From: Raillietiella orientalis
Taxonomy: Eukaryota
DNA: 64,000 nucleotides
Assembly: GCA_036172245.1 (NCBI GenBank)
Contig: JAYWIR010000119.1
Coordinates: 1 to 64,000 of the forward strand
Direction: 5' to 3'
Notes under the pieces: model-generated
What the model was told of the DNA's origin: nothing
Seen by the model: only the letters and a program-made list of their open reading frames with translations
Databases searched by the model: none
Part shown: positions 2,666 through 46,754 of the stretch, in pieces
Layout of the letters: every line of letters begins with the position of its first letter
Position numbering within the stretch: position 1 is the first letter of the stretch
Made by a program: the position numbers and the translations under genes

Positions 2666-2749
2666 GTGCAGCGTTGTCGAAGAGCGCGTTCCCGACGTTC
2701 CCGAATGCTGCGAGGAAGAACTCGCCGCTACCGTGGAGCAACGCTCAGT

Positions 2750-5087: not shown

Positions 5088-5400
5088 AGCGCGGGAGATG
5101 GAGCGGATCTCCGCAGGACGGCCGCGGTATCGGTGTGGACAACCGCAGAGTTGCGGTCTTGCCTACCTGCTTCGGCCAGTCGTCGAGGACGCGGAGCGGG
5201 GCGTGCGGTTCGACGATCAAGGTCGTGTCGGCCAGCTGCTTCTCAGATGGTCCGACTCCATCGACCTGATTGTCAACGACCTGTATGCCCCGAGGGGCAC
5301 GGACCTGACGGACAGCTGCAAAGCGGCGCGACTGGCTGACCGAGGAAGGCGTGCGGAACTCTCATCCGGTTGCAGGAGAAGTCAACGTGCGTTTTCGTGT

Positions 5401-23970: not shown

Positions 23971-24641
23971 GCTGGCTGGTGTGGCTTTCATGCTCAAGCC
24001 AGCCGTCGTTAATGCGCTGCGCGACGTGCACTTCAACGGGGAAGGTCAAATCGGGCAGCTTGTTGCCAAGTGGTCCGACGCGATCGACCTCGTCGTGACC
24101 AACGTGTGCGCGCCCGGCACGAGCCACAGGCGCGGGGAACGCACTGCGTTCTTCGAAGGCCTGCGGCGAGATTGGCTGGCCGAAGCAGACATGCGAAAGG
24201 CGCACCTCATTGCCGGGGACTTTAACGTCCGCCTGCTGGCAGGTGCGCCCGACATTCGCGCACAGCTGGTCAACGAGATGTGCGCTGCCATGCACGCGCG
24301 CAACTTGTTGGCCGGTGACGCCGGGACGGAGACGAGGATCGACCACATGTTCCTCGACAACCACCTGTGTTCGCGGGTGGGAAATCGAGGGGCAGTGCCA
24401 TCCGAACTTTCCGACCATCCCCGGCTCGTGCTAGAAATACACCCGCGAGGTAGAGGTCCACCCTCCACAGCGTGGCGTTTGCCAGGGGACTGGTTGCGCC
24501 TCGCAGGAGCAGCGCAACATCTTCGCTTGTTCCTCCAAGGCTTCCATCTGCAGTCGCTGGCGGACTGGGACGACTTGAAGAGCTCAGGCCGCGAGTTCTG
24601 CGACCAGTTTCCCCTGAACCGTCTCCCTCCAGGTTTCGGCG
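23971..24641 (+). mobile_element. Element A, endonuclease fragment (5' part lost)
   Basis: ORF 23981..24673: TNVCAP, IAGDFN, RIDHMF, SDHPRL, ending LPPGFG at the insertion site. Confidence 0.88.
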
Positions 24642-27586
24642 ATGCCACCCGGATACGCCGGGACGTTTATTAAAAACATTTCAACGGTCAATACAGAACG
24701 TGGTACAAGGCCCCACTGACGGCCACGGAATGCCGGAACTGCCGGGACACCGGGACGCAGCCCGGTGTGCGTCTCCTCGGCAGAGGAGGGGGATGGGGGA
24801 AAAAACAAAAATAAAATAAAATAGAAAAACAAACCACAAAAAAAAAAGTTTGGAGGGCCGGGAAGGGATCACAGAAAACTGCTGGGAGCGCCCATCCTTT
24901 GCAGGATGCCTTCTAGTTCCATTTTCAGCTTTCCTAGATGGGGCCATCGGGTAGCTCTCTGCAGGAAGCGCGAAGCATACTCGATGACGTCCCTCACGAT
25001 GCAGTCTTCATCTTCGGCATCACTCCAGGTCGCCACGATACCACGAATGCAGCAAAGTGCTGCCAGGGCTGCGGCTGGACTGAGGGCGTCCCGCACGAAG
25101 ACAAGACTGAAGATGCATTCAACATTGCCACCATCCGGTATCCGGAGGGCCGTTTTCAGACGATCCCAAAGAATCCGGACGGCAGGGCATTCAACTAAGA
25201 GGTGGGGGAGCGACTCCCGCTCCCCTCACCTGGCACACGCAGGATTTACTCTTCCCCGCGTCCAGTGGAAGCGGCGCGCGTTGCAGGGTAGACCCCAATG
25301 CAGCCACAGAAGCGCCGATTCTTGCCACTTCATGGGGAGAATCCTGGATCCAAGTAGAACCGGAGGCCACTTCAGGTCATCCAGTCGAATGCCGAGCAGC
25401 TCGCCCCATCTTCTTAATCCACGCGGCTGGAGACTAGGGGTCGTTGCATCTGTCAACTCTCCCATGGTCCAGCCGCTCATCATCTTCTCTCTGCCTGTGA
25501 TACAGCAGCAGACTTGCCACCTTGGCTTCCGGCTTCCGTGAAGCGCCCTTTGGAGGAAGGGCATCGCCGTAACAAGGGGTGTGCCTTCCGCCCACGTGTA
25601 ACTCGGTGGAAATTCAAGAATATCACGGAGAGTGCGGCGGAAGTATAAACCGACTCGCAGGCAGTTCATCCGGTCTTCGCACCTTTGGTTCTGCTTAGCC
25701 CAGGTGCCAGCAGTCTCTTCCAGCCAAGCGAAGGAGTTGGCAGGGCCACAAACCATCCAGTCGTTCTCCTTTGCCAGGGTTGCGATGCGGCCGAGCAGTA
25801 GACCGCATCTTCGAATCTTCCGGCCAGGGCACAGAAGAAACGATGCGAGTCCTTCGCAGCGGGACACACGCCTGGCCAGGAGGCGGGCCGGAATGCACCA
25901 AGCGGTGCTCCACATCTTCGCTGCGATGGCGAGGGTCCGCCATCACAGCTGGATTTCCACGCGCTCCAGCGTCAGGATGCTGAGACCGCCGTCCCGACGC
26001 GGAGCGCACAAGTCTTTCAAAGGGACTCGGGGCCTCCCCTTGCCCCAAAGAGCTATGCGGAGGAGGTCCTTAGTCCGCTTTTTTGATTCCACGGAGGCGG
26101 GGCAAACAAAAAGCAAGGGGCGGAGGATGGGGGCCGCGAAGGCGTTGCAAACCGCGGCCCGTTCCGGCAAGTGAAACTTGCCTTCCAGGAACGGGCCGAT
26201 CGCCGTCTCGACTTTTTGGAGGCAGCTGGACCACGCTTCCGCAGGGGAGAAGTCCCCCAACGGCACACCGAGGTACTTGATGCACCTCACCGTGGGGATC
26301 CCCAGACGGACCCAGTCCTGCTGCCCTGCGCACGTCGCTCCAACTGGCAACACTGACGACTTCGCCCTGTTAACCTGTAATCCGGCCCCACGGCTAAGCA
26401 GGTCGAAGAAATCTCCGACCGCCTTCGCCGGGGTGGACATAGGTAAGAGGAGCAGAAGATCGTCGGCATACGCCGCTACGGCTGGCGTGCCGGGGCACGA
26501 GCTCGGCAAGGGGGCCAAAGTCACCCTGTACGCTTTCAGCACCAACACAGCGTAGGTGCTAAAAAGCAGGGGGCTGAGGCTGTCGCCCTGCCTTATGCCC
26601 CGCCGCACCGGCACGCCATACACCTTTTGTCCACTGAAAGTAATCGAGATTATCGCGTTCCGCCAGCAAGAGCGCAGGTAGGTAATCAAGGAAGGTGGGA
26701 AGCCCATGCGACCCAGGAGCTTCAAGAGGAGTTCCTGGTCAACACAGTCGAATGCCTTATGGAGGTCGACTGTGATCGCTAAAACCCCCTTTCCCGCATG
26801 AGGGTGCCTTCCCTGTCCCACTGGCGGCCCCAAAGTAGGGTTGCAAATTTTCCCTTTCCCTTCTTTATTACTCCGCTGCGCGTGCATCCATGTGCTCGCG
26901 AAGAAGAGGTTGTCCTCCATACTTCGCCCGGGAACAGCGTAAGTCTGCTCCGGGCTAATTATGGAATTGGACACCTGCCCCAATCGCGACGCCCGCAGCC
27001 CGGCAATCAACTTGGCGTCCGTGTTCACAATCGTGATCGGACGCCAGTTGCAAAGTTTCCTGAGGTCTCCTCCCTTCGGGAGGAGCCTCACCCTGGCTGA
27101 CCGAAACGAGGCGGGATCATCGCCTTCGTCTTGGATTCGCCTTGTCAACTCGAGCACCAGGGGGGCCAGCTCTTCCGCGAAACTCTGAAAGAACTCCGCG
27201 GGCAAGCCGTCCTCCCCTGGCGCCTTACGCCTCTTGAGCCTTTTGATACCGGCGAGAATTTCACCGGTCGTGAAAGGCTCATCGAGGCTTTCTTTGTCCT
27301 CCTCCCCTATCGCCACGGAACCACTCATGAGCAATCGCCGCGAGGCGTCTTGTTCGGGTGGTGTTTTGGCGTAAAGGGAGGAATAAAAACACCGCACGGG
27401 ATTCCGTACCGCAGGCGGGGACGAACGTTCCCGGCCCAGGTCATCCAGCATGCTGGCTGACCCTGATTACCTAGCTTGTCGCTCGGCTCCGGCGCGGTAT
27501 TCGGCCAGGCGACGGACATTGGGGTTCCTCTCGTGATGACGCGCGTGCAAATACGCGCGTTCGTTGCGAGCCCCGTCGCCGAATCC
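24642..27586 (-). mobile_element. Element B, 3' half (post-EN linker, frameshifted RT, 3' UTR and terminus)
   Basis: ORFs 25943..27451, 25226..25915, 24869..25096. Terminus aataaacgtcccggcgtatccgggtggcat. Confidence 0.9.
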
Positions 27587-27596
27587 CTTGGCGAGT

Positions 27597-27603
27597 GGAC
27601 GTG
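27597..27603 (+). promoter_or_regulatory. GGACGTG, DPE-like internal promoter motif
   Basis: Present at all intact 5' ends: 20070, 27597, 44725 on plus; 35962, 39756, 55103 on minus; variant TGACGTG at 2665 and 12665 on minus. Confidence 0.55.
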
Positions 27604-27682
27604 TTTTTCCTTCGCTCCCGAGTGAGTCGACAGGAAGCGGTTTTTTGTTGTGTTGTTTAGTGCGGAACATCGTTGGTGTCCG

Positions 27683-29439
27683 ATGGCAGCGATGCCTGAG
27701 GACACCACGATGGAGGTAGGTGTGGGGGAGGCTTGCCCACCCCCACAGCCTACAGAATCAGTGGCGTCCGCCCCGGAATCGCCCTCGCCGCTCAAGGCGA
27801 GGAGCTGGAGCGCCATGGTGGCCGCGCCGAGCGCGGAAACCATGGCCGAGATGGCGGCCTACCGGGCAGCTGGGTACAAGCCCAGCTTGGTTTACCAGGT
27901 AGGCAATCTCTTTGACGGGCGAACTGCACGCGCTTTTTCGAAAGCGCTGCAGAACGCCAACGTATTAGAAAAGGACCTTGACGGTCTATCCGTGCTAAGC
28001 GGGGGTCAGCGCGTTGAGGTTGTCTGCAAGGACATCACCTTGGCGCAAAGCTTGATAACCACCCCGCTGAACGTGGACGGACGCAAGATCCTACCAGTCA
28101 CGATGGACCGCTCCGTAGTGGTCCATCTGACAGGGATCACCATCCGCATGACGCGGTCTGCGGTTGGTGATCAGTTAAGAAAGCACGGGGATGTTCACGC
28201 GCTTTGGCCAAAGGCCACAATCTTCGATGGCTACGATAGCCTTTTCGGAGGGCAGGCCGCCGCGCGCGTGACGGTGAACGAGAGTGGGCTTCCCCACAAA
28301 CTAGAGGTCAATGGCGAAGTCGTAGACCTCTGGTGCGTGGGGAAACCCCGCTTTTGTGGCTACTGCAATGCAGTAGGACACTTGCGCAAGCGGTGCCCGA
28401 ACATTGTGTGCCACTTATGCGGGGAGAAGGGCCACGTACGCCGCGTATGCCCTAAACTCCCCACTCCGGTGCCGCCTGCTGCAAAAAAAGCACAGGCAAA
28501 ACGCGGTAAACTGGTCGAAAGACCAAAAAGAGATACTGGCCGGCAGCAGCCGCTAGCCCCTGTTCCTCCCACACAGGCGTCGGAAGAAAAACCCTCCGAA
28601 GACGCGGGAGTCCAAGACGGCTGGCAGCTGGTCAAGGCCAGGAAGGAGAAAACGGTGCCCCCCGCGGAACCCGCAAAAGCGGTAAAAAAGACAGCCGGCA
28701 AGGCGAAAAAACCTGGGCCGCGCTCTAAGACCATGCAGGAGTGTACGGTAGCACTGGAGCGCATAGCCGTTCCCGAGATTGCCACCCGGGGCGACGAGCC
28801 TTCCCTCGCCGTTTCCGCCGCGCCCGAGGTTCGCGACGGCGAACCCTCTGTTTACACAGAGGGTGAGCCGCGCGACGCGCCGGTCGACACTGCGGACGCC
28901 GCGTTCGCAAAGGCGGCGGAGGAGCTCGCAGCCACGCTGGCGGAGCGTGAGAACCCCTCACGCAAGGCCGTGCGAAGGCCGGCTCCCGCGAAAAAGGCCC
29001 CCACAGGTGAGTCGGACCTGGGGGCCGGAAGTGCATCCTCCTCCTCGGAGGCACCCCCAGGAAGTCGGGACGCAAGTCCCAGAAACCCAGGAGGCGCCTC
29101 CCCTCCACCAGCGAGGAGGAGAAGCAGGAAGGTAGCGGTAGCGTGGGAATCCTGGAGGGGGAACTCCCACGCTCGGAAGCCGTCGAGCCGGCCACCCCCA
29201 TGGAGGAGGGTGAGCAGGGGGGCGAAGTCCTCCCTGCAGTCGCCGAGCCTGAACAGCCCGCCCCCATGGAGGAGGGCCAACAGGTAGGCGCGACCCCACT
29301 TAAGGGTGATCCGGACGACGCGCCGGCACCGATGGATGAGGAGGAAAAGGTGCCTTCAGTACCTGTCCCCCCTCCCCCTCCACCTAACGTCCCGCCCCAG
29401 CAGGTGGCGGACGCCGCATCGCCGTTTTCCCTGGACTAA
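27683..29439 (+). pseudogene. ORF1 of C (two CCHC knuckles), one frameshift near 29060
   Basis: CGYCNAVGHLRKRC and CHLCGEKGHVRRVC. The C-run before agg is one base shorter than in the intact B ORF1. Confidence 0.88.
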
Positions 29440-32400
29440 CACTTGGGCTCGCCAGTCGCCGTCGGATTCGCGCGGCCTGTTGGAACGTCAACGGGCTGCG
29501 CGACGACGGCAACAGGCGAGATACAGCCGACGCCCTGCGTGAGCTCGACCTGGCGCTGCTGCAGGAGATCCACGTGATCACCGCGGCAGACGCCCAGGAA
29601 ATCGAGACGATCGCGGGGGGTCGGCTGTATTGGCGATGCGGCCTCCGCAACACGTGCGGGGTCGCGTTCTTCGTGAAGCCGGCCATCGACGCTGCCGTAA
29701 AGCGCGTGCGGATTGATGACGACGGTCGGATCGGTCAGCTGATTCTCAGCTGGTCCGACTCGATCGACCTAATCGTCACAAACGTGTATGGCCCCAGCGG
29801 TAAACAGGGATACAGCGACCGTACCAGGCTGCTGGATTCCCTGAAGCGCGACTGGCTGGCGGACACGAACGTGCGGAAGGCTCACCTGATAGCGGGAGAT
29901 TTCAATCTCCGTCTGCTAACAGGTGAGCCAGAAACACAAGAGAACGCGATGAACGAGTTGTGCGCCGCCATGCGTGCGCGCAACTTGTTCGCGGGTGAGA
30001 GGGGACTGGTCCGCAGCATCGACCACGTCTTCCTCGACGCTGACCTGTGTTCACGGGTCGGCAAACGGGGGAGGGTTGCGTCGACGTTGTCGGACCATTC
30101 CCGGTTAATTTTCGAGATGCGGCCTCGTGACTAGGGACCGCCATCCAGGGATTGGCGTCTGCCGGGGGACTGGACGCGACTCTCAGGTGCGAAGGAATAC
30201 CTTCGCGAATACCTGAGAGGTGTCACGCTCCGGAATCTCCAGGACTGGGACCTTTTTAAGGAATCGGTCCGCGAGTTCTGTGAGCAGTTCCCCTGGATCG
30301 CCTGCCCCCCGGATTCGGCGAGGGTGCTCGCAACCATCGGGCCTATTTACAGGCTCGTAGGTACGAGAGAACCCCTAATGTCCGTCGCCTGGCCGAGTAC
30401 CGCGCCGGGGCCGAACGCCAAGCCTGGCAATCCGGGTCGGCCAGCTTGCTGGACGACCAGGGCCGGGAATGCTCGTCCCCGGCGTCGGTACGGCATCTCG
30501 TGCGGAGTTTCTATTCCTCCCTTTACGCCAGGCAGCCCCCGGATCGAAACGCCTCTCGGCGCTTGCTTCCGGATGGCGCCCCGGCAATAGGGGAGGAGGA
30601 GATGGAAAGCCTCGACGAGCCTTTTACCACCGGCGAAATTCTCGCCGGTATCAAAACGCTCAAGAGGCGTAAAGCTCCAGGGGAAGACGGCTTGCCCGCG
30701 GAGTTCTTTCAGAGCTTCGCGGAAGAGCTGGCACCCCTGCTGCTTAAGTTGATCAGGCTGATCCGAGACGAAGGCGATGTTCCCGCCTCGTTTCGGTCAG
30801 CCAGAGTGAGGCTCCTGCCGAAAGGGGGGACCTCAGGGATTTAAAGAACTGGCGTCCGATCACGATCGTGAATACGGACGCCAAGTTGATCGCAGGGCTA
30901 TGGGCTTCGCGTCTGGGGCAGGTGGCAGAATCCGTAATTAGCCCGGAGCAGACTTATGCTGTTCCCGGGCGAAGTATGGATGCCAGCCTCTTCTTCGCAA
31001 GCACATGGGTGCACCTGCAGAGAAGAGAGAAGAAAGGGATAGGGAAAGTCGGCAACCCCACATTAAGGCCGCCAGCCGGGCTGGGAAGGGACCCCCGGGC
31101 GGGGAAGGGGGCCCTAGCGCTCGCAGTCGATCTCCACAAGGCGTTCGACTGTGTAGACCAGGAACTTCTCTTGGAGCTCCTGGGTCGCATGGGCTTTCCA
31201 CCCTCCCTGATTTCCTACCTGCGCTCTTGCTGGCGGAACGCGATAATTACCGTCTCTTTCAGCGGTCAAAAGGTGTATGGCGTGCCGGTGCGGCGGGGCA
31301 TAAGGCAGGGAGATAGCCTCAGCCCCCTGCTCTTCAGCACCTACTTTGAGTTGGTGCTGAGAGCGTACAGGGTGACTTTGGCCCCATTGCCGAGCTCGTG
31401 CCCCGGCACGCCCGCCGTAGCAGCATACGCCGACGATCTTCTGCTTTTGTTGCCAATGTCCACCCCGGCAAAGGCGGTCGGAGACTTCTTCGATCTGCTC
31501 AGCCGCGGGACCGGACTGCACGTTAACAGAGCGAAGTCGTCGGTTGTGCCAATAGGTGCGGCGTGGGCAGGGCAGCAGGACTGGGTCCGTCTGGGGATCC
31601 CCACGGCGAGGTGCTTCAAGTACCTTGGTGTGCCGTTGGGGGACTACTCCCCTGCGGAAGCGTGGTCCAGCTGCCTCCATAAAGTCGAGACGGCGATCGG
31701 CCCGTTCCTGGAAGGCAAGTTTCACTTGCCGGAACGGGCCGCGGTTTGGAACGCCTTCGCGGCACCCATCCTCCGCTTCTTGCTTTTTGTTTGCCCCCCC
31801 ACCGTGGAATCCAAGAAGAGGACGAAGGACCTCCTCCGTATCGCCCTTTGGGGCAAGGGGAGGCCCCGAGTCCCACTGAAGGACTTGTGCGCTCCGCGTC
31901 GGGACGGCGGTCTTGGCCTCCTGACGCTGGAGCGCGTGGAAAAGCAGCTGCCGTGGCGAACCCTCGCCATCGCAGCGAAGATGTGGAGCACCCCTTGGTG
32001 CACTCCGGCCCGCCTCCTGGCCAGCCGTGTGTCCCGGTGCGATGGACTCGCGTCTTTTCTTCTGAGCCGTGGCCGGAAGATGCGAAGATGCGGCCTACTG
32101 CTCGGGCGCATGGCAACATTGGCCAAGGAGAACAGCTGGATGGTTTGCTGCCCCGCCAGCTCCCCCGCCTGGCTGGAGGAGAATATTGGAACGTGGGCAG
32201 TAGTCAACCAGAGAAGCCACGAGACGTGGAATCGTCTCCGATGCAGCCCCTACGCCCGCTGCACGCTGCGGAATCTCCTGGAGAGTTCAGCAAGATGCAC
32301 GTGGGCAGAGACGACCTGCCTAGCTACGGCGCTACCCTTCCTAAGGAGGGCACTTCACAGCACCCGGACGCCAAGGTGGCAAGTCTCCTGCTGCATCGAG

Positions 32401-33033
32401 GGACGCGAGAAGTTGATCAGCGGCTGGACAACAGGAGAACTGGCCGACGCCTCGACCCCGAGCGTCCAGCCGCGAGGATTATTAAGATGGGGCGAGCTGC
32501 TCGCCATCCCCCGGGATGAGCTGAAGTGGCCCCCGGTGATGAAGGAATCCAGGATCCTGCCCCTCAAGTGGCAAGAGTCGGCGTTGCTTTTGTTGCACTG
32601 GGGTCTACCCTGCAACGCGCGCCGCTTCCACTGGACGAGGGGGGCTGTGGATCCTGCGTGTGCCAGGTGCGGGGAGCGGGAGTCGCTTCCCCACCTTATT
32701 GTGGATTGTGCTGCCCTCCGACCCCTTTGGGAACGGTTCGGGACGACCCTCGGGCTCCCTACGGGTAGCACCCCCAGAGACGTTCTTCGGCCCCTCTTCG
32801 TGAAGGACGCACTGCAGCCAGCCGCAGCCATCGCAGCCTTGTGCTGCGTCCGTGGCATCGTGGGGGCATGGAGCGACGCCAACAACGAAGGAGTGGGTCC
32901 ACAGGCGAGGGATGTCATCCCGTATGCCAAACGCTTCTTGCGAAGAGCTGCCGGATGGCCCCAACTAGGGAATATGCAGGCTGACCTCGAGGGCTTCGTT
33001 CGACGGATGGGCCCTCCCCACAGCGACCAGTGA
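29439..33033 (+). pseudogene. ORF2 of C (APE-RT-Cys), with a stop at 30132 and frameshifts near 30290 and 30830
   Basis: WNVNG, LQEIH, GDFN, IDHVF, SDH; RT in ORF 30868..33033 with DLHKAFD, GIRQGDSLSP and YADD. Confidence 0.9.
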
Positions 33034-33209
33034 TCCCTTCCCTGCCCTCCAACTTCTTTTTGTTTGTTTCTTTTTTTATTTTACTTTTTGTCTCATCCCC
33101 ATCCCCCTTCGCTGTCGGGGAATGCCACGCCGGGCTGCGTCCCGGTGTCCCGACAGGTCCTGTGTTTACGGCCGTGGTGGGGCCTTGTACCACGCATGTA
33201 AAGTTTATC

Positions 33210-33240
33210 AATAAACGCCCCGGGCGTACCCGGGTGGCAA
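33210..33240 (+). terminator. Conserved LINE 3' terminus: AATAAA plus CCCGG/CCGGG hairpin plus TGGCAA, no poly(A)
   Basis: Same layout at the ends of A, B, E, F, I, M and the 61-bp insertion. Confidence 0.75.
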
Positions 33241-35972
33241 CGCCGAATCCGGGGGGCAGGCGATCCAGGGGGAACTGCTCACAGAACTCGCGGACCGATT
33301 CCTTAAAAAGGTCCCAGTCCTGGAGATTCCGGAGCGTGACACCTCTCAGGTATTCGCGAAGGTATTCCTTCGCACCTGAGAGTCGCGTCCAGTCCCCCGG
33401 CAGACGCCAATCCCTGGATGGCGGTCCCTTGTCACGAGGCCGCATCTCGAAAATTAACCGGGAATGGTCCGACAACGTCGACGCAACCCTCCCCCGTTTG
33501 CCGACCCGTGAACACAGCTCAGCGTCGAGGAAGACGTGGTCGATGCTGCGGACCATTCCCCTCTCACCCGCGAACAAGTTGCGCGCACGCATGGCGGCGC
33601 ACAACTCGTTCATCGCGTTCTCTTGTGTTTCTGGCTCACCTGTTAGCAGACGGAGATTGAAATCTCCCGCTATCAGGTGAGCCTTCCGCACGTTCGTGTC
33701 CGCCAGCCAGTCGCGCTTCAGGGAATCAGCAGCCTGGTACGGTCGCTGTATCCCTGTTTACCGCTGGGGGCGTACACATTCGTGACGATCAATTCGATCG
33801 AGTCGGACCAGCTGAGAATCAGCTGACCGACCCGACCGTCGTCATCGAAGCGCACGCCCTTCACGGCCGCGTCGATGGCCGGCTTCACGAAGAACGCGAC
33901 CCCGCAGGTGTTGCGGAGGCCGCACCGCCAATACAGCCGACCCCTCGCGATCGTCTCGATCTCCTGGGCGTCTGCCGCGGTGATCACGTGGATCTCCTGC
34001 AGCAGGGCCAGGTCGAGCTCACGCAGGGTGTCGGCCGTATCTCGCCTGTTACCGTCGTCGCGCAGCCCGTTGACGTTCCAACAGGCGGCGCGAATCCGAC
34101 GGCGACTGGCGAGCCCAGGTGTTATTTCTGGGAAGATGGCGATGCGGCGTCCGCCACCTGTTGGGGCGGGACGCTAGGTGGAGGAGGAGGGTCAGGCGCT
34201 GCGTGCACCTGGTCCCCCTCCTCCATGGGTAACGGCGCGTCGAGGGGGTCACCCTTAAGTGGGGTGGCGCCTACCTGTTGGCCCTCCTCCATGGGGGCGG
34301 GCTGTTCAGGCTCGGCGACTGCAGGGAGGACTTCGCCCCCCTGCTCACCCTCCTCCATGGGGGTGGCCGGCTCGACGGCTTCCGCGCGTGGGAGTTCCCC
34401 CTCCGGGATTCCCACGCTACCGCTCCCTTCCTGCTTCTCCTCCTCGCTGGTGGAGGGGAGGCGCCTCCTGGGTTTCTGGGACTTGCGTCCCGACTTCCTG
34501 GGGGGTGCCTCCGAGGAGGAGGATGTACTTCCGGCCCCCAGGTCCGACTCACCTGTGGGGGCCTTTTTCGCGGGAGCCGGCCTTCGCACTGCCTTGCGTG
34601 AGGGGTTCTCACGCTCCGCCAGCGTGGCCGCGAGCTCCTCCGCCGCCTTTGCGAACGCGGCGTCCGCAGTGTCGACCGGCGCGTCGCGCGGCTCACCCTC
34701 TGTGTAAACAGAGGGTTCGCCGTCGCGAACCTCGGGCGCGGCGGAAACGGCGAGGGAATTCTCGTCGCCCCGGGTGGCAATCTCGGGAACGGCTATGCGC
34801 TCCAGTGCTACCGTACATTCCCGCATGGTCTTAGAGCGCGGCCCAGGTATTTTCGCCTTGCCGGCTGTCTTTTTTACCGCTTTCGCGGGTTCCGCGGGGT
34901 GCACCTTTTTCTCCTTCCTGGCCTTGACCAGCTGCCAGCCGTCTTGGACTCCCGCGTCTTCGGAGGGTTTTTCTTTCGACGCCTGTGTGGGAGGAACAGG
35001 GGCTAGCGGCTGCTGCCGGCCAGTATCTCTTTTTGGTCTTTCGACCAGTTTACTGCGTTTTGCCTGTGCTTTTTTTGCAGCAGGCGGCACCGGAGTGGGG
35101 CGTTTAGGGCATACGCGGCGTACGTGGCCCTTCTCCCCGCATAAGTGGCACACAATGTTCGGGCACCGCTTGCGCAAGTGTCCTACTGCATTGCAGTAAC
35201 CACAAAAGCGGGGTTTCCCCACGTACCAGAGGTCTACGACTTCGCCATTGACCTCTAGTTTGTGGGGAAGCCCACTCTCGTTCACCGTCACGCACGCGGC
35301 GGCCTGCCCTCCGAAAAGGCTATCGTAGCCATCGAAGATTGTGGCCTTTGGCCAAAGCGCGTGAACATCCCCGTGCTTTCTTAACTGATCACCAACCGCA
35401 GACCGCGTCATGCGGCTGGTGATCCCTGTCAGATGGACCACTACGGAGCGGTCCATCGTGACTGGTAGGATCTTGCGTCCGTCCACGTTCAGCGGGGTGG
35501 TTATGAAGCTTTGCGCTAAGGTGATGTCCTTGCAGACAACCTCAACGCGCTGACCCCCGCTTAGCACGGATAGACCGTCAAGGTCCTTTTCTAACACGTT
35601 GGCGTTCTGCAGCGCTTTCGAAAAAGCGCGTGCAGTTCGCCCGTCAAAGAGATTGCCTACCTGGTAAACCAAGCTGGGCTTGTACCCAGCTGCCCGGTAG
35701 GCCGCCATCTCGGCCATGGTTTCCGCGCTCGGCGCGGATACCATGGCGCTCCAGCTCCTCGCCTTGAGCGGCGAGGGCGATTCCGGGGCGGACGCCCCTG
35801 ATTCTGTAGGCTGTGGGGGTGGGCAAGCCTCCCCCACACCTACCTCCATCGTGGTGTCCTCAGGCATCGCTGCCATCGGACACCAACGATGTTCCACACT
35901 AAACAACAATAGAAAAAACCGCTTCCTGTCGACTCACTCGGGAGCGAAGGAAACACACGTCCACTCGCCAAG
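33241..35972 (-). mobile_element. Element B, 5' half (5' UTR, ORF1, EN up to LPPGFG)
   Basis: 5' end cttggcgagtggacgtg at 35972. Candidate TSD ggattcggcg (35973-35982) and ggtttcggcg (24632-24641). Confidence 0.92.
34122..35876 (-). CDS. Intact ORF1 of B, 584 aa, nucleic-acid-binding protein with two CCHC knuckles and an acidic/Pro-rich tail
   Basis: MAAMPEDTT...CGYCNAVGHLRKRC...CHLCGEKGHVRRVC...SSQK* is open throughout. Confidence 0.9.
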   Translation of the reverse strand: MAAMPEDTTMEVGVGEACPPPQPTESGASAPESPSPLKARSWSAMVSAPSAETMAEMAAYRAAGYKPSLVYQVGNLFDGRTARAFSKALQNANVLEKDLDGLSVLSGGQRVEVVCKDITLAQSFITTPLNVDGRKILPVTMDRSVVVHLTGITSRMTRSAVGDQLRKHGDVHALWPKATIFDGYDSLFGGQAAACVTVNESGLPHKLEVNGEVVDLWYVGKPRFCGYCNAVGHLRKRCPNIVCHLCGEKGHVRRVCPKRPTPVPPAAKKAQAKRSKLVERPKRDTGRQQPLAPVPPTQASKEKPSEDAGVQDGWQLVKARKEKKVHPAEPAKAVKKTAGKAKIPGPRSKTMRECTVALERIAVPEIATRGDENSLAVSAAPEVRDGEPSVYTEGEPRDAPVDTADAAFAKAAEELAATLAERENPSRKAVRRPAPAKKAPTGESDLGAGSTSSSSEAPPRKSGRKSQKPRRRLPSTSEEEKQEGSGSVGIPEGELPRAEAVEPATPMEEGEQGGEVLPAVAEPEQPAPMEEGQQVGATPLKGDPLDAPLPMEEGDQVHAAPDPPPPPSVPPQQVADAASPSSQK

Positions 35973-38956
35973 GGATTCGGCGGAGGGCTGAGGAACGACC
36001 GGGCATACCACCACGCCCGTCTTTACTCTAGAACTCCCGACGTTCGACGCCTGGCGGAGTATAAAGCTGGGGCTGAGCGACAGACCTGGTAATCCGGGTC
36101 GCCCAGCTTGCTGGACGCCCAAGGCCAAGAATGCTCAGCTCCGGCGAGAATAAACCGCATCCTGCGGGACTATTACTCCTCCTTGTACGCGCGTAGAACA
36201 ACAGAGAACGCCGTGGCGCAGCGCTTGCTGCCGCAAGGCGCCCCCGCGCTGCAGGAGGAGCAGGCACATGAACTCGCGGAGCCTTTCTCGATGGCGGAGA
36301 TCGTCTCCGCCATCGGAAAGCTCCGTAAGAGAAAAGCACCAGGGGAAGACGGTCTGCCCGCGGAGTTCTACCAAGGCTTCGTGGCGGAGCTGGCCCCCCT
36401 GGTGCATCGGCTATGCATGCTGATCCGAGAACAAGGGGACGTCCCCAAATCGTTCCGGTCAGCTAGAGTACGTCTCCTGCCGAAAGGAGGAGACAATCGC
36501 AACGTAGGCAACTGGTGTCCCATCACAGTAGTGAATGCGGATGCGAAGCTGCTTGCCAAGCTTTGGGCTGAGCGACTGGGACGGGTGGCGGAATCCGTGG
36601 TGAGTACGGAGCAGACATACGCTGTTCCCGGACGAAGCATGGAGGCCAACCTGTTCCTCGCCAGTACATGGTGGCAGTTGCAAAAAAGCGAAGACCAGGG
36701 AGGTCAAGAGAATCCTGGATTCTCCTCTGACCAGGGAGGGTACGCCCTTTATGGAAGAGCTGCGCCCGGTGCCCTTGCGGTCGCAGTCGATCTGCGTAAA
36801 GCGTTCGATTGCGTCGACCAGGAACTGCTTCTGGAGCTCCTGGAACGCTTGGGATTCCCGGCCGTCTTCCGGGCTTACCTGCGCTCCTGCTGGCGCTTCG
36901 CTCTAATAAACATCTCTTTTAGCGGCCGGCACGTGTACGGCGTGCCGGTTCGGCGTGGCATAAGGCAGGGTGACAGTCTGAGCCCCATGCTCTTCAGCAT
37001 CTACTTCGAGCTGGTGCTGAGGGCATACAGGGAGATTCTGGCAACCCTGCCAAGCTCGTGTCCCGGCACGCCTGCCGTGTCGGCCTACGCCGACGACCTT
37101 CTGCTCCTGCTCCCCGGGTCCACCCCGGCGTCGGCGCTCGAAGATTTCTTTGAGTTGCTGCGCCGCGGGACGGGCCTCGAGGTGAACAGAGAGAAATCTT
37201 CCATCGTTCCAACATCACCACAACTTTTCAACAATACGGCGTGGGCCGGACGGCCGGACTGGATCCGCTTGGGGATCCCCACGGGCAGGTGCTTCAAGTA
37301 CCTTGGCGTTCCGTTGGGGGACTTCTGCGTTGCAGAAGCCTGGTCCGACCGTCTCCAAAAGGTGGAGTTGGCGATCGGCCCGTTCCGGAACGGCAAGTTT
37401 TACTTGCAGGAGCGGGCCGCGGTGTGGAACGCTTTCGCGGCCCCCCTCCTTCGCCCCTTACTTTTTGTTTGCCCCGCCCCTCCCATCATACAGAGACGGA
37501 CCAAAGCCCTCTGGAGGACTGCCCTTTGGGGCACAGAGAGGTCGCGAGTCCGATTGAAAGACTTGTGCGCTCCACGCAGGGATGGTGGCTTGGGCCTCCT
37601 TACGTTGGAGCGCATCCAACTTCAAACAAGAATTCGAAAGTTAGCCCTTGCGGCTAGCTTATGGATGACGCCATTGTGCGATTCGGCACGGCTCCTCGCC
37701 AGAAGAGCGACCGGCTGCGAAGGATTGTCCTCGATCCTCGTGGCCTACCAGCGCAGCCTCTCCAACTGTGGTCCCGATTTGCTCCAGATGGTCGCCCTGA
37801 TGAGGGAGAATACCTGGATCTCCTGCATCCCCGCGAACTGCACTGCCTGGCTTCAGGAGTCAGCTTCCGCGTGGGCTAAGATCAAGGGCACGAGCGAGGC
37901 GGAATACAACTGCCTACGACGAGGACCGTACGCTCGACAGCCGCTGCAGGATATTATCAACACGCCCCGGAAGTTTCTGTGGGCTTCTTTCAGTCCCCTT
38001 GCCCCAGTTCTGTCCTCCCTTAAAAACACTAGGAGCAGCAACGAGCGGGCATCGTGGGAAGTTTCCTGCCTTATCCGAGGCAGGAAAAAACCTTTAAAGG
38101 CGTGGACGACTTGGGAGCTCACGGACGCTGCCACCCCGAGCGTCCCGCCTCACGGACTTGCGCGCTGGGGAGAGCTGCTCGCAATACCTCCGGAGGAGGT
38201 GAAGTGGCCCCCAGCGTGTTGGGATTGCGGTACACTCCCGTTGAAGTGGCAGGAGACGGCGTTGCTATTTCTGCACTGGGGACTGTTAAGCAGAGCACGC
38301 CTGTCTCACTGGACACTGGGGAATGTGGATGCCCGCAATGTCGAGTGCGGAGAAAGAGAAACCTTCCCGCATCTCACCCTCGAATGTGTCGCCCTGGATG
38401 GACTCTGAAGTCAAATCGCCCCAATCCTCCATCATCCAGTAGGCGACCCTAAGGAAGTTTACCGTCGCCTCTTTCTGCGTGACGGCCTGCGCCCCGCTGC
38501 GTCTCTAGCAGTCCTCTGCTGCGTGCGCGGCATTGTGCAAAGGTGGCACGCCAGAAAAAGAGGCCCAAGATGCAGGGACGCCATCCACTGGACGACGATC
38601 TCTTTAGAGACGGCGACAAGGTGGCGTCTACCTTTCACAATAAAAACTGAACTTGACTGCATCCTCAACAGGATGCGGAGGACCGACCCAGGCGCCCAGT
38701 GATCCCTTCCCTTTCCCCCCCCTCTCCCCATACAACTGTTTCCCTCCCCGTTATCTCTCTTTATGTTTGTTTTTGTTTTAGTTTTCCCTTCCCATGCGCC
38801 TCGGGAATGGACCTAACCGGTCTATGCACCGGCAACCGACACGTCAACCAAGGTGGGAAAACCAAGTGTTTCCCACAATTAACTTTTGAAAGACTTTATT
38901 ATATAATTTTTGTAGAAAATAAGAATAATAAATGCACCGGCATATCCGGGTGGCAA
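35973..38956 (+). mobile_element. Element A, 3' half (linker, RT, 3' UTR, terminus)
   Basis: Starts GFGGGLRNDRAY. Terminus aataaatgcaccggcatatccgggtggcaa (38927-38956). Confidence 0.9.
36108..38408 (+). CDS. RT-containing open stretch of ORF2 of A (766 codons; frameshift before the true end ~38702)
   Basis: KAPGEDGLPAEF, DLRKAFD, GIRQGDSLSP, YADDLLL, KYLGVPL. Confidence 0.88.
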   Translation: MLDAQGQECSAPARINRILRDYYSSLYARRTTENAVAQRLLPQGAPALQEEQAHELAEPFSMAEIVSAIGKLRKRKAPGEDGLPAEFYQGFVAELAPLVHRLCMLIREQGDVPKSFRSARVRLLPKGGDNRNVGNWCPITVVNADAKLLAKLWAERLGRVAESVVSTEQTYAVPGRSMEANLFLASTWWQLQKSEDQGGQENPGFSSDQGGYALYGRAAPGALAVAVDLRKAFDCVDQELLLELLERLGFPAVFRAYLRSCWRFALINISFSGRHVYGVPVRRGIRQGDSLSPMLFSIYFELVLRAYREILATLPSSCPGTPAVSAYADDLLLLLPGSTPASALEDFFELLRRGTGLEVNREKSSIVPTSPQLFNNTAWAGRPDWIRLGIPTGRCFKYLGVPLGDFCVAEAWSDRLQKVELAIGPFRNGKFYLQERAAVWNAFAAPLLRPLLFVCPAPPIIQRRTKALWRTALWGTERSRVRLKDLCAPRRDGGLGLLTLERIQLQTRIRKLALAASLWMTPLCDSARLLARRATGCEGLSSILVAYQRSLSNCGPDLLQMVALMRENTWISCIPANCTAWLQESASAWAKIKGTSEAEYNCLRRGPYARQPLQDIINTPRKFLWASFSPLAPVLSSLKNTRSSNERASWEVSCLIRGRKKPLKAWTTWELTDAATPSVPPHGLARWGELLAIPPEEVKWPPACWDCGTLPLKWQETALLFLHWGLLSRARLSHWTLGNVDARNVECGERETFPHLTLECVALDGL

Positions 38957-39756
38957 ACGTCCACGGACGGTGGCCCTCGGCACCGTAAATGCCGCAAGCC
39001 GGTCGCTAACCGGCAAACTTAAGGTGAAAGATCGCGCCGTCCACATGTAATTGGGAAGGCATTAGCCTCCGATCCGCCATGGTCACTCGCGCCATGGCAA
39101 CTCCGCTGTGGAGAGATGCAATCCTTTTCATCGGATTGTCTGCTCTCCACAGCGCGTGCACCGTGGCGAATGCACTTCGTGCAGCGACGAGCACGCGATC
39201 GGGCGTGTCCACCTGGACGGCGGATAATCGGACCACGAACGACTGGTCCATGGCCGACGGGACGACCTCTTTCCCGCGGATATTTAGCGGGGTGCGAAGA
39301 AGGCGCTGGACTAAGAATGCCTCTTTGCAGTGCACCTCCCAGTGTCCGAGCGCGTTCACAGGCATCACAGCCAAGAGGTCTTCCTGCCTGACACCGACGC
39401 GTTCGAGATAGGCCCATAGATTTTCTACGACCCCGTCGAAGACAGCAGCACAAACCGGATAGCAGAGAGCAGGCTTGTAGCCATGGGCTGCATATGCCTG
39501 CCGCTCTTCTTCGTCGGGCGGTGCACCGTTGGCTGCCGCCGCCTTGACGACAGCGGCGAAGCTTCTCGCCGGTGGCGAGACACAAGAATCAGAGGCAGAC
39601 CGGACATCTGGAATAGAGTCTCCACTGTCAGTAGCAGCCTCCACATCCATCTTTTGCTGCAAGGGCTCCGTGGACATCCCAGTGGACGCACTTGGGCACA
39701 CCACACACAAGAAGACGGAAAGGAATCACGCTCGAGGAGCAACACAGAACACGTCC
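38957..39756 (-). mobile_element. Element K: J-family 5' end and ORF1 N-terminal part, interrupted by A at the zinc knuckle
   Basis: 5' ggacgtgttctgtgttgctcctcg; ATG 39677 MSTEP; ORF 39006..39710 is homologous to 1902..2741. Confidence 0.88.
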
Positions 39757-41794: not shown

Positions 41795-44714
41795 TTGCCA
41801 CCCGGTGACGCCGGGGCGTTTATTTCAAATACTCCATGATTCGTGGTACGAGGCCCCACTACGGCAAACTCAACTGGACCTGCCGTGTCGCCGGTACGCA
41901 GACCTGCGCGACTCTCCTCGGCAGCGGAAGGGGGTGGGAGAAAAAACAAAAAGAAAACTAAATCATGAAAACAAAAAGATTTGGGAGGGCAGGGAAGGGA
42001 TCAAGGTCCATTGGAAGGAGGATCCATCCTTTGCAGGATGCCCTTGAGGTTCGTGCGTATATTTCCCAGGTGGGGCCATCTGGTCGCATTCCGCAGGTAG
42101 CGGACTGCAAGTACGACGGCATCCCTGTCGTGGCTCGGTCTTCTGACGTTGCTCCAGCAAGTCACAATCCCGCGTATGCAGCAAAGTGCAGCCAGGGTAG
42201 CGGCTGGAAGAAAGGGAATCCTGCAAGAACAGAAGCCGAATAACGTCTCTGGGCTGGCTGCCCTCCTGGATCCGTAGGGAGGGACGAAGACGTTCCCACA
42301 GGGGTCGGAGGGCAGCACAATCAACAAGGAGGTGGGGGAGGGTTCCCCGTTCCCCACACCTGATGCAGGTAGGATCTGCTCGAACCCTGGTCCAGTGGTG
42401 GCGGCGTGCGTTGCAGGGTAGACCCCAATGCAACAACAGAAGCCCTTACTCCTGCCACTTCAGGGGGAGGATTCTAGAACCAATTACTACCGGGGGACAC
42501 TTCAGGTCATCCGGCTGGATGCCGAGTAGCTCGCCTCATCTCTGAAGTCCTCTCGGCTGGACACTAGGGGTAGTGGCGTCTGCCAGTTGCCCCGTGGACC
42601 AGCCGCTTATCAACTTCTCCTTGCCTGGGATGCGGCAGGAGAGTTGCCACCTAGGCTTGGGGCTGCTAAAGAGCGCCCTCCTCAGGAAGGGCATCGCCGT
42701 AGCTAGGGGGGTTGTCTCTGCCCACGTGCTTCTCGCGGGACACTGGAGTACCTTCCGCAGAGGGCAGCGGGAATAGGCGCCGCGTCGCAGGCAGTTCCAC
42801 ATCTCTCCGTTCTTCTGGTTTATCTTCGCCCTCGTGCCAGCTGTCTCCTCCATCTATGCGGAGGAGTTGGCGGGGCTGCATACCATCCAGCCGTTTTCCT
42901 TAGCCAGAGTTGCCATGCGTCCCAGGAGAAGTCCGCATCTCTTGATCTTCGAGTGGCGGCACAGCAGATGAGACGCGAGACCCTCCGTTCCGGATACACG
43001 GCTGGCAAGGAGTCGGGCCGGAACGCACCATGGGTTGCTGCATAACTTCGCTGCGATGGCCAGGGTGCGCCATCGCAGCTGGATTTCTACTCTCTCCACC
43101 GTCAAGAGGCTGAGACCGCCATCCCAACGTGGAGCACACAAGTCCTTCTAATGGACTCGGGGCCTCCCTCTTCCCCAAAGGGCAAACCTCAGGAGGTCCT
43201 TCGTCCTTTTCTTCATGTCCCTGGGGACGGGGCAAACAAAAAGCAGGGGGCGGAGGATGGGAGCCGCAAAGGAGTTCCACACCGCGGCCCGTTCCGGAAG
43301 CAGGAACTTGTTTTCCAAGAACGGGCCGATCGCCGTTTCCACTTTTTGGAGGCAGCCGGACCACGCATCCGAAGGGGAGTAATCCCCCAACGGCACACCG
43401 ACGTACTTCAAGCACCTGGCCGAGGGGATCCCCAAACGGACCCAGTCCTGCTGCCCAGCCCACGTCGCACCGACTGGTACCACCGACGACTTCGCCTTGT
43501 TAACCTGCAGTCCGGTTCCGCGGTTAAGCAGGTCGAAGAAATCCTCGAATGCCTTTGCCGGGGTGGACATCGGCAACAAGAGCAGAAGATCGTCGGCGTA
43601 CGCTGCTACGGCGGGCGTGCCGGGGCACGAGTTCGGCAAGGGGGCCAACGTCACCCTATACGCTCTCAGCACCAACTCAAAGTAGGTGCTAACGAGCAGG
43701 GGACTGAGGCTGTCGCCCTGCCGTATGCCCCGCCGTACCGGCACGCCGTACGCCATTTGACCTCTGAAAGAGATATTGATCAGCGCGCTGCGCCAGCAAG
43801 AGCGCAGGTAGGTCAGTAGGGAGGGAGGGAAGCCCATGTGTCCCAGGAGCTCCAGCAGGAGATCCTGGTCCACGCAGTCAAACGCTTTATGCAGATCGAC
43901 TGCGATCGCTAGGGCCCCCTTCACACCTGGGAGTCCTGTCCCTGCCCGGCTGACGCCCCCAAAGCGGGGCTGCCAATCCTTCCCTCTTCCTTTTCTACAC
44001 TACTCTGCACATGAAACAATGTGCTCGCGAAGAAGAGGTGGCCTACATACTTCGCCAGGGAACAGCGTATGTCTGCTCCGGGCTAATCATGAAATTGGCC
44101 ACCTGCCTCAGACGCGAAGCTTACAGTCCGGCGATCAGCTTGGCGTCCGTATTCACAATTGTGATCGAACGCCAGTTGCTGAGTTTCCTGAGGTCTCCTC
44201 CTTTCGGAAGGAGCGTCACTCTGGCTGACCGAAAAGAGGCGGGTACATCGCCTTCATCTCGGATCAGATTTGTCAACTCAAGCACCAGGGGTGCCTACTC
44301 TGCCGCGAAGCATTGAAAGAACTCCGCGGGCAGGCCGTCCGCCCCTGGTGCTTTCCGCCTCTTGAGCCTTTTGATACCGGCGAGAATTTCGCCGGTGGTA
44401 AAAGGCTCGTCTAGGCTTTCCTTCTCCTCCTCCCCTATTGCCGGGGCACCGTCCGGAAGCAGGCGCCGAGAGGCATCTTGGTCTGGGGGCGCCCTGGCGT
44501 AAAGGGAGAAATAATAACTCCGTACGATGTGCCGTATTCTAGCCGGAGCTAAGTGCTCCCTGCCCTGGTCGTCCAGCAAGCTGGCCGACCCGGATTGCCA
44601 GGCTTGACGTTTGGCTCCGGCAAGGTACTCTGCCAGGCGACGGACATTGGGGGTCCTCGCGTAACGACGGGCATACAAGTACGCTCGTTTGTTACGGATC
44701 CACTCCCCAACTCC
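41795..44714 (-). mobile_element. Element E: 3' half of a LINE (linker to terminus), degenerate
   Basis: ORFs 44295..44837 and 43148..43924 (YADD). Terminus aataaacgccccggcgtcaccgggtggcaa. Confidence 0.9.
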
Positions 44715-46754
44715 CTTGGCGAGCGGACGTGTTTTTCCTGAGCTCCCGAGCGAGTCGACAGGAAGCGGTTTTTTCTTTGTGTGTGTTCGTGTGGAACATC
44801 GTTGGTGTCCGATGACAGCGATGTCTGAGGACACCACGATGGAAATAGGTGTCGGGGAGGCTTGCCACCCCTAGAGCCTGCAGAATCAGGGGCGTGCGCC
44901 CCGGAATCATCCCCGGCAACGCCGAGGACGTGAAGCGCCATGGTTTCTGCGCCGAGCGCGGAAACCTTGGCAGAGCAAGCGGCCTACAGGGCCTGCGGAT
45001 GTAAACCATCTCTGGTTTATAAGGTAGGACCCCTGTTTGATGGTCGCACCGCCCGGGCTTTTAGTAGGGCACTGCAGGATTTCCCTGTACGCGAGGAGTA
45101 TCTTGACGGCCTCTCCGTACTCAGCGGGGGCCAGCGCGTGGATGTCGTCTGCAAAGACGTAGCCTTAGCACAGCGCCTCATTAACACCCCGCTGAATGTG
45201 GATGGCCGGAAGATCCTGCCGGTTAGCATGGACCGCTCCGTAGTGGTCCATCTAACCGGCATTACGAACCGCATGACGCGATCTGCGGTGAGTAATGCAC
45301 TTAGTAAGTACGGTGAGATACACGCGTTGTGGCCAAAGCCTACCATTTTCGAAGGCTTTAATAGCCATTTCTTAGGCCAGACCGCAGCGCGTGTAACAGT
45401 TGATGTGGGCAGTGCCTTGCCCCACAAACGGGAGGTCGCAAAGTAATCCGTCGACCTCTGGTACGTGGGGAAACCCCGCTATTGTGGCTACTGCGATGCA
45501 GTAGGGCACTTGCGCAAGCGGTGCCCGAATATCGAGTGCCACTTGTGCGGGGTTAAGGGACACGTTCGTCGTGTGTGCCCCAAACGCCCCACCCCGGTGC
45601 CACCTGCTGCCAAAAAGGCACAGGCTGAAAAAGGAAAAAAGGTCGAAAGACCTTATCGCGAAACTGGCCGGCCCCAGCCGCCATCTCCTGTTCCTCCCAC
45701 CCAGGCGTCGGAGGAAAAACCCGCTGAAGACGCGGGAGAGGAAGAAGGATGGAAGCTGGTAAAGGCCAGAAAACAGAAAAAAGTTCCCCCCGTGGAACCC
45801 GCGAGAGCGAAGAGAGAAAAGAGCGCGAAACCGAATAAACCCGGTCCGCGCTCGAAAACTCTTCGCGAGTGGACGGTGGCACTCGAACGGATTGCCGTCC
45901 CCGAGGCTGCCACCCGGGGCGACGAGCCTCCCCTCGCCGTTTCCGCCGCGCCCGAGGTTCCCGACGACGAACCCTCTGTTTGCACAGAGGATGAGCCGCG
46001 CGAAGCGCGCGCCGACGGCGAGGACGACGCGTTCGCGCAGGCGGCAGAGGAGCTCGCGGCCACACTGGCCGAGCGTGAGAACCCCTCACGCAAGGCCGTG
46101 CAAAGGCCGGCTCCGCCGAAGAAGGCCCCCGCAGGTGAGTGCGACCTGGGGGCCGGAAGTGCAACCTCCTCGTCGGAGGCACCCCCCCGGAAGACGGGAC
46201 GCAAGTCCCAAAAGCCGAGGAGGCGCCTCCACACCACGAGCGAGGAGGAGAAGCAGGAAGCCGACGGCAGCGTGGGAATCCCGGAGGGGGAAATCCCACG
46301 CGCGGAAGTCTTCGAGCAGGCCACCCCCATGGAGGAGGGTGAGCAGGGGGGCGAAGTCCTCCTTGCCGGCGCGGACCCTGTACAGCCCACCCGTATGGAG
46401 GAGGGCCAACAGGTAGGCGCGACCCCACCGGAGGGTGACCCGCCCGACGCGCCGTCACCGATGGAGCAGGGGAACCAGGTGCTCGAGGCACCTGTCCCTC
46501 CTGCTCCAACTAGCGTCCCGCCCCAACAGGTGGCGGACGCCGCAGAGCCGATTTCCCAGGAATAACACCTGGGCTCGCCTGTCGCCTTCGAGTCCGCGTG
46601 GCCAGTTGGAACGTCAACGGGCTGCGCGACGACGGCAACAGACGAGATACGGCCGACACCCTGCGTGAGTTCGAGCTGGCCCTGCTGCAGGAGATCCACG
46701 TGATCACCTCGGCAGACGTCCAGGAGATCGAGACGATCGCGGGGGGTCGACTGT
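44715..46754 (+). mobile_element. Element D: C/B-family 5' end, disrupted ORF1 and EN start, interrupted by F
   Basis: 5' cttggcgagcggacgtg; CGYCDAVGHLRKRC; WNVNG...LQEIH...IAGGRL. Confidence 0.9.

Follow-up and report, generated by a model that had tools for sequence, protein, structure and literature searches.

RESULTS

Nested LINEs in the window

We analysed a window of 64,000 nt from Raillietiella orientalis (GenBank assembly GCA_036172245.1, contig JAYWIR010000119.1, positions 1-64,000 of the forward strand), and our subject is a lineage of long interspersed nuclear elements (LINEs) in this window, three copies of which (C, B and D) interrupt other LINEs at one and the same place of their coding sequence. 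From position 1 to ~57,000 the window has a G+C content of 55-63% and consists nearly entirely of LINE pieces, which are nested in one another on both strands, and whose long open reading frames (ORFs) encode a CCHC zinc knuckle (ORF1), an endonuclease/exonuclease/phosphatase domain (EN) and a reverse transcriptase (RT). The layout of these pieces, to which we refer by single letters, was obtained by blastn with C as query and by tblastn with the proteins of C.

Element C is full length (27587..33240, plus strand, 5654 bp) and contains, in this order, a 5′ leader, an ORF1 with the CCHC knuckle (27626-29287), an endonuclease of the apurinic/apyrimidinic (AP) type (29388-30134), a linker with its own G-F-G site, an RT that ends at 33033 and a 3′ end ..CCCGGGTGGCAA at 33240, without poly(A). 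ORF2 of C has only three breaks, a stop near 30130 and frame changes near 30289 and 30823, and consists otherwise of long open frames; moreover, contigs from sequencing run X1 vary by one base in length near 30289 and 30823. Because of the long open frames, the small number of breaks and the length variants at two of them, C is taken to be young. Positions 1-1870 of C gave no blastn match to window sequence outside this lineage.

C lies inside B, and B lies inside A. B, on the minus strand, is split by C into a 5′ module with leader, ORF1 and EN as far as the site (33241..35972, 96.7% identity to C 1-2734) and a 3′ module with the G-F-G site, RT and a 3′ end ..CCGGGTGGCAT (24642..27586, 81.2% identity to C 2725-5653). 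Host A, on the plus strand, is split by B in turn, the first piece being the C-terminal part of EN, which ends at the site (~23966..24641, 68% identity to C), and the second starting at the site and comprising RT and the 3′ end ..CCGGGTGGCAA (35973..38956, ~72% identity to C). The third copy, D, is a 5′ part with leader, ORF1 and EN residues 1-81 (44715..46754, plus strand, 81.6% identity to C 1-2042), whose EN is broken off at 46754 by a different LINE, G, which adjoins with its 3′ end (46755 onward, minus strand). Host E of D (41795..44714, minus strand, 79.3% identity to C) has the site GGAGTTGGGG (G-V-G), an RT and a 3′ end. In copy G, EN and RT are encoded in one uninterrupted open frame, with PPGFG or PRGFG between them and ..RN.RAY, or a variant, after this motif, and thus the PPGFG motif is the EN-RT linker of ORF2.

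Three insertions at one register of the EN-RT linker

The 5′ end of the lineage, CTTGGCGAG[T/C]GGACGTG, is present in three copies in the window, at 27587(+), 35972(-) and 44715(+), and the 17-mer CTTGGCGAGYGGACGTG was found at these three positions only, even when up to 2 mismatches were allowed, with 0.02 matches expected from shuffled sequences. On the host sense strand, the bases immediately 5′ of the three 17-mer matches are GGATTCGGCGACGGG.. (GFGDGARNERAY), GGATTCGGCGGAGGG.. (GFGGGLRNDRAY) and GGAGTTGGGGAGTGG.. (GVGEWIRNKRAY), which fall into one gap-free register, and the host codons past the junction, G-F-G-D-G-A-R-N-E-R-A-Y, G-F-G-G-G-L-R-N-D-R-A-Y and G-V-G-E-W-I-R-N-K-R-A-Y, could likewise be aligned without a gap. 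The inserts are antisense to the host ORF2 in all three cases. All three 5′ junctions lie at the same register, and the 3′ junctions of the two complete copies, B and C, both lie at the same 10-mer (2/2). These results on junctions, like those on flanks and site occupancy below, are all from within the one 64-kb window.

The exact 10-mer CGCCGAATCC occurs four times in the window and each time at such a site: the matches at 27577(+) and 33241(+) bracket C, the one at 30311(-) is the empty site of C itself, and the one at 35973(-) flanks B. C is accordingly enclosed by a perfect target duplication of 10 bp in the sequence of host B, with CGCCGAATCC both as left copy (27577..27586, plus strand) and as right copy (33241..33250, plus strand). 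For B the duplication in host A is 9/10, since the left copy GGTTTCGGCG (24632..24641, plus strand) has one mismatch to the right copy GGATTCGGCG (35973..35982, plus strand). The empty target in C (30311..30320, plus strand) is again GGATTCGGCG and forms the G-F-G codons of its own linker. Upon removal of the insert and one duplicate in silico, the linker of host B reads VREFCEQFPLDRLPPGFGDGARNERAY and that of host A reads GREFCDQFPLNRLPPGFGGGLRNDRAY, with the frame unbroken in both.

As a chance model we supposed insertion to be uniform over the 5.65-kb host and over both strands, so that the second and third events together repeat the first in position and strand with a probability of (1/11308)^2, or about 8e-9, a figure that is plain arithmetic under the uniform model. 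The same-site observation is real and far beyond chance. A first-pass annotation of this DNA, made from the sequence, had described a shared host register at 27587, 35972 and 44715, a perfect duplication around C and a near-perfect one around B, and an unoccupied site in C at 30311-30320; the gap-free alignment of all three junctions, the two copies of CGCCGAATCC around C, the pair GGTTTCGGCG/GGATTCGGCG around B and the exact GGATTCGGCG in the linker of C bear out each of these points.

Independence of the three events

Matching junctions could also be produced by one old insertion that was segmentally duplicated and then changed by divergence or partial gene conversion, in which case the three junctions would not be independent. 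Large duplications are indeed present in the window, a tandem pair of 10 kb and an inverted pair of 3.2 kb with 94-95% identity, and the differences between the 5′ modules of C and B are clustered, which suggests conversion. We therefore compared, pairwise, the 500-nt host flanks with the first 500 nt of the inserts. The host flanks are 65-79% identical among each other. For C-in-B and B-in-A the flanks are 65.2% and the inserts 97.8% identical (p = 3e-46), and for B-in-A and D-in-E the values are 67.5% and 78.3% (p = 1e-4), a strong discordance in two of the three pairs; for C-in-B and D-in-E, as one duplicated insertion would have it, the flanks (78.6%) match the inserts (77.2%, p = 0.65).

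C-in-B and B-in-A are separate events, since one insert contains the other and nested insertions cannot be copies of a single event. The identities of flank and insert being alike for C-in-B and D-in-E, the independence of the third event is drawn from the ratio of nonsynonymous to synonymous substitution (dN/dS), which is 0.30 (dS 0.50) for ORF1 of C and D and 0.24 (dS 0.49) for the RT of host B and host E. These ratios indicate selection rather than the decay of dead copies, and hence C and D, like B and E, would have diverged as active lineages under purifying selection before insertion; since copies of a dead junction would drift neutrally, D/E would not be decayed copies of one junction. 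Moreover, C is young, as its three ORF2 breaks indicate, and D differs from it by ~18%. From these comparisons we conclude that there were most probably three independent insertions, and the single duplicated insertion, already largely refuted, retains next to no probability. The first-pass annotation had held that the hosts are clearly diverged and that the three insertions are not copies of one event, which, for C-in-B and B-in-A, the nesting and the contrast of 65.2% with 97.8% confirm. It had also named flanks derived from one segmental duplication as the outcome that would count against its reading: for C-in-B and B-in-A this is excluded, and for D-in-E it is only made unlikely, by way of dN/dS (0.30 and 0.24).

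Endonuclease, reverse transcriptase and element ends

EN is N-terminal in ORF2, matches PF03372 (E = 6.6e-14) and carries the catalytic motifs NVNG, QEIH, NVYGP, GDFN and SDH, that is, the N, E, Y, GDFN and SDH of AP-type nucleases. The closest solved protein to it is human L1 EN (E = 5e-8), and the EN structures of TRAS1 and R1Bm were not among its PDB sequence matches at E <= 0.01. RT lies 3′ of EN, matches PF00078 (E = 1.5e-22), has an AYADD box and is closest, among solved proteins, to L1 ORF2p (E = 4.6e-16); a protein search with RT gave one relative at 67% identity, the other 119 among the matches listed being at <=33%. Judged by these sequences, C, B and D are one lineage of retrotransposons lacking long terminal repeats (non-LTR retrotransposons), with an AP-type EN and an L1-like RT. 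They have the AP endonuclease and, in the same ORF, the RT with YxDD that are found in the L1 group of AP-EN non-LTR retrotransposons, and lack the 3′ poly(A) or simple-repeat tail of that group; with target-site-specific LINEs they have in common both independent insertions at the same position and a constant orientation to the target.

Seven 3′ ends could be read, those of B at 24642(-), C at 33240(+), A at 38956(+), E at 41795(-), its duplicate H at 51883(+), G at 46755(-) and N at ~21262(-). Poly(A) was found at none of the seven, and each has AATAAA and a CCGG..CCGG stem before the terminus, which is GGTGGCAA or GGTGGCAT in 5/7, GGTGACAA in G (46755) and CCGGTTAA in N (~21262). This 3′ box is common to several LINE lineages of the window, and more diverged 3′ ends lie at 5027(-) and 15028(-). 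Compensatory changes were seen in none of its 7 predicted pairs, and its conservation is in sequence only. A shared 3′ box without poly(A) would fit recognition of the template by the 3′ untranslated region, as in other site-specific LINEs.

At the other end, the C/B/D lineage and a second lineage of the window have the 5′ motif GGACGTGTTTT in common behind differing leaders of 9-12 nt. In a search for a ribozyme or known RNA, Rfam gave no match at the gathering score anywhere in the window, and over 27500-27800 there was only one match, at chance level. A hairpin between the 5′ leader and the host was considered and rejected, the alignment scores being ordinary when set against 5000 random junction-like places (p = 0.90, 1.00, 0.13, 0.09 and 0.36).

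A model of insertion into the linker

The same position, the same orientation and the 10-bp duplications recur in independent events, and the motifs of EN and RT are intact. In our judgement it is quite likely that C, B and D represent a target-site-specific, L1-related LINE with an AP-type EN, whose target is the conserved motif that encodes the EN-RT linker of related LINEs. The targeting proposed in the first-pass annotation, which separates the EN of the host from its RT, is supported in the window by the shared register, the duplications and the independence of the events.

Target-primed reverse transcription is the established mechanism of this class of elements, and the 3′ junction marks the priming nick. 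In our model the lineage would integrate by this mechanism at a single target of ten bases, GGATTCGGCG, which encode the G-F-G of the PPGFG linker that is conserved between EN and RT in related LINEs. The duplication, taken with the geometry of target-primed reverse transcription, predicts that EN nicks the sense strand of the host directly after GGATTCGGCG, in agreement with the nick expected in the first-pass annotation, and that the other strand is cut at a distance of 10 bp. The freed 3′ end would then prime copying of the element RNA, starting at the conserved 3′ terminal box, and the cut of the other strand would give rise to a duplication of 10 bp, with the insert in antisense to the host every time. 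We infer from the sequence which strand would be nicked first and that the EN protein would be what reads the target. Each insertion would part the EN of the host from its RT and would bring with it a further intact site of the same sequence, and in this way the LINE island could enlarge through nesting.

The site could instead be set by pairing of nucleic acids and not by a protein, if read-through transcripts ending in CGCCGAAUCC paired with the complementary nicked host strand GGATTCGGCG-3′. All resident copies sit in the site, and pairing would determine where reverse transcription begins once a less specific nick had been made. The use of read-through target sequence has an analogue in R1-type elements, and both complete copies are directly followed by CGCCGAATCC, with the conserved 3′ box immediately upstream of this 10-mer. 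However, the 3′ end of the element (..GGTGGCAA) has no complementarity to the primer strand, a fixed second cut 10 bp away is not explained by pairing alone, and pairing of the 5′ leader with the adjoining host was not significant at any of 5 junctions (empirical p 0.09-0.99). We regard pairing as an unlikely determinant of the site and retain recognition by EN as the preferred reading.

Site occupancy and evidence against site specificity

Eight linker sites are present in the window, and the three that are filled all carry inserts of the C/B/D lineage: the linkers of host B (GGATTCGGCG), of host A (GGTTTCGGCG and GGATTCGGCG, its two duplicates) and of host E (GGAGTTGGGG). The remaining five are empty, in C (GGATTCGGCG), G (GGCTTCGGGG), F (GCTTTTCGGA), I (GGTTTTGGGA) and K, where the linker is diverged and ADFSQ replaces PGFG.

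Several observations weigh against a LINE specific for this site. Only three of the eight linker sites are filled, the perfect site in C being empty like the diverged ones of G, F, I and K, and the site in host E, which is occupied, departs from the consensus at 3/10 bases. The number of events is only three, all of them within a single 64-kb window. For D the 3′ junction was lost when G cut the element, which leaves the 5′ junction only, and identity does not separate D-in-E from C-in-B. Moreover, the RT/3′ module of E is as near to B and C as B is to C (dS 0.49-0.56 for E against these, 0.36-0.47 for the RT modules of B and C), yet the 3′ end of E lies in an RT motif of F. E has lost its EN module and may or may not be a counter-example to site specificity. 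The near identity of B and C in the 5′ module, set beside their diverged RT modules and the different site of E, gives no more than a hint that the insertion site goes with the module that bears EN rather than with the RT/3′ module, the 5′ module of E being lost.

A step in identity between B and C at the insertion site

B and C are 99% identical over the 300 nt before the site, the final 188 nt being the same in both, and 79% identical right after it, and this step at 30311 in C and 27586 in B falls exactly at the insertion site (27587-30310 vs 33241-35972). The 5′ module shared by the two has 89 differences, which are clustered (index of dispersion 6.1), with islands of 12-15% difference at positions 1701-1900 and 2101-2200 of C. 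One explanation of the step would be gene conversion between the inverted 5′ modules after insertion, with a tract bounded by the junctions, and the other would be recombination among active lineages, with the linker as the place where EN and RT modules are swapped. Insertion at the site is needed under either explanation, because the RT modules of C and B differ by 19% under selection. Twin priming, in which the inverted and the sense piece have to come from one RNA, was rejected: the 3′ module of B overlaps C fully and differs from it by 19%.

The same step bears on a different account, in which insertion is targeted regionally to LINE islands, for example through chromatin, and the common breakpoint is a fragile or recombination-prone spot of the linker or the product of template-switch chimeras. 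That B and C go from 99% to 79% identity precisely at the site means that module exchange or conversion occurs there, and Zepp and Cnl1 form self-targeted LINE clusters for which, in the portions of the descriptions at hand, no base-level site is stated. Complete termini, 10-bp duplications, constant antisense orientation and restored frames are those of ordinary insertion and not of recombination, and the base-level coincidence is improbable (about 8e-9, by the arithmetic given above). We consider regional targeting with a fragile breakpoint very improbable and adhere to insertion at a defined target sequence.

Other lineages and the remainder of the island

Over 500 nt, two 5′ ends of the second lineage, located at 20057(+) and 55115(-), show 89.0% identity. 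Both adjoin the K-A-F-D/V codons of the host RT, in K on the minus strand and in Q on the plus strand, and these two hosts are only 62.1% alike. Both inserts are antisense and lie within 1-2 nt of one register, and from the sequence K-A-F-D/V looks like a second, lineage-specific target site. The 3′ ends of E and its duplicate H (41790/41795 and 51883/51888) lie, antisense, in the motif NWRPIT.VNADAKLL of the RT of F and I. Four X1 contigs continue through 41790, which suggests uninterrupted F-type sequence in other copies. The 3′ end of G (46754/46755) lies in the EN of D, after ..IAGGRL, and that of A (38956/38957) in the CCHC knuckle of ORF1 of J, for which the homologous places near 1864 and 11864 are uninterrupted.

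Tentatively, and with rather more doubt than confidence, these places may be read together as the work of a guild of LINE lineages, each keyed to its own codon motif in ORF2 and inserting antisense, and each disabling a competitor or sibling while planting new targets. The motifs would be the PPGFG linker for C/B/D, KAFD in RT for an I-type lineage and NADAKLL in RT for E. If such a guild exists, the island would propagate itself and be kept from host genes, and a base-level mechanism would be at hand for LINE-only islands such as the putative centromeres of the Zepp type.

The tandem units of ~10 kb at 1-10000 and 10001-20000 are mostly 100% identical, and each holds the LINE pieces K, J and M; the pair may be a recent duplication or an effect of assembly. 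A third remnant of this unit, 88% identical, begins at 38938. At 10863/10864, and likewise at 862/863, the RT part of K (minus strand) is joined straight to an ORF1-like piece on the same strand without EN, and the linker site of K reads ADFSQ where others have PGFG; K may be an EN-less deletion derivative. The inverted duplication of 3.2 kb (39845-43034 vs 50644-53834, 94-95% identity) includes the junctions of E with F and of H with I, and it eliminated the remainder of D and the 5′ part of E. We considered whether H (50644-51883) is the lost 3′ part of D and rejected this, since H and E are 94-98% identical and their flanks I and F 85-97%, which the inverted duplication fits better. At the right edge of the island (56000-64000) the G+C content drops from ~60% to 40-49% over the last 7 kb, and none of the 9 ORFs of this low-GC flank had a Pfam match.

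Matches outside the window

In metagenomes, a 20-mer that is conserved in the 5′ untranslated region matched 6 loci, none of which is related (0/6), and scans of prokaryote genomes and viral contigs with an 18-mer of the 5′ end gave 19 and 0 matches, related in 0/19 (35-47 of 120 bases alike). Sequencing run X1 contains 37% of the window words, and the contigs on 25000-44999 number 494 from X1, 6 from X2 and 49 from X3. The X1 contigs are ~300 bp long, and among the rows listed none covers the junctions at 27587, 33240, 35972 and 44715. The summed depth of X1 contigs is 26-38 over the RT of C (30336-33003) and 1.4-6.6 over its 5′ module (27668-30335), a contrast that reflects either more RT-side sequence elsewhere or more cross-matching of RT between lineages.

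DISCUSSION

The present data suggest a site-specific LINE that is aimed at the EN-RT linker of related LINEs, its own kind included, and not at genes of the host. In the literature searched, which did not take in Repbase or supplements, no LINE was reported with a base-defined antisense target in LINE coding sequence. If a LINE endonuclease is indeed directed at a conserved coding motif of LINEs, one simple rule would account for the growth of such islands by nesting, for their confinement and for the mutual inactivation of rival lineages, since insertion splits EN from RT. AP-type nucleases with defined long targets are few, and the specificity of such an EN would be a new one among them. LINEs that cluster in themselves are already known, and no base-level target for them is given in the literature searched, as far as the available parts of those texts go.

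Among site-specific LINEs, R1 inserts in the 28S rDNA, TRAS and SART insert in telomere repeats and Tx1L inserts in the Tx1D transposon, and the targets of such elements comprise rDNA, telomeres, small RNA genes, microsatellites and one DNA transposon. The excerpt available (PMC4640811) ascribes an AP-like endonuclease to the target-specific LINEs of the Tx1 and R1 clades and names transposons among the targets. C/B/D resembles these clades in its AP-type EN, in the use of one defined sequence within a multicopy target, in fixed orientation and in defined short duplications, a likeness of behaviour. Unlike them, it has as its target a protein-coding motif of LINEs, its own included, and not an RNA gene, a microsatellite, a telomere repeat or a DNA transposon.

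Zepp of Chlorella and Coccomyxa and ZeppL of Chlamydomonas are, in the accounts available in part, L1-type LINEs heaped in clusters of their own copies, and here too the likeness is one of behaviour. The formation of clusters by insertion into existing copies is matched in the window by the nested LINE pieces between 1 and ~57,000. The excerpt on Zepp describes tandem arrays mostly of 3′ ends, which arise through 5′ truncation (PMC8226300), and gives no base-level target. Tandem arrays of 5′-truncated 3′ ends were not found in the window; in contrast to Zepp as described in that excerpt, the 5′ ends of C, B and D are complete, and these copies are inserted antisense to their hosts, in one codon register and with 10-bp duplications. 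Cnl1 of Cryptococcus is a LINE that inserts preferentially in itself and forms nested arrays, in the part of the report available (PMC9942834). According to the same part, Cnl1 nests in the same orientation near telomere repeats, whereas C/B/D inserts opposite to its host and in the EN-RT linker.

Human L1 provides the nearest solved EN and RT, and C/B/D shares with it the layout of two ORFs and duplications of the kind made by staggered nicks. L1 nicks a loose consensus of the TTTT/A type and ends in poly(A), whereas C/B/D has no poly(A), ends in a conserved 3′ box and is inserted in the window at one 10-bp site.

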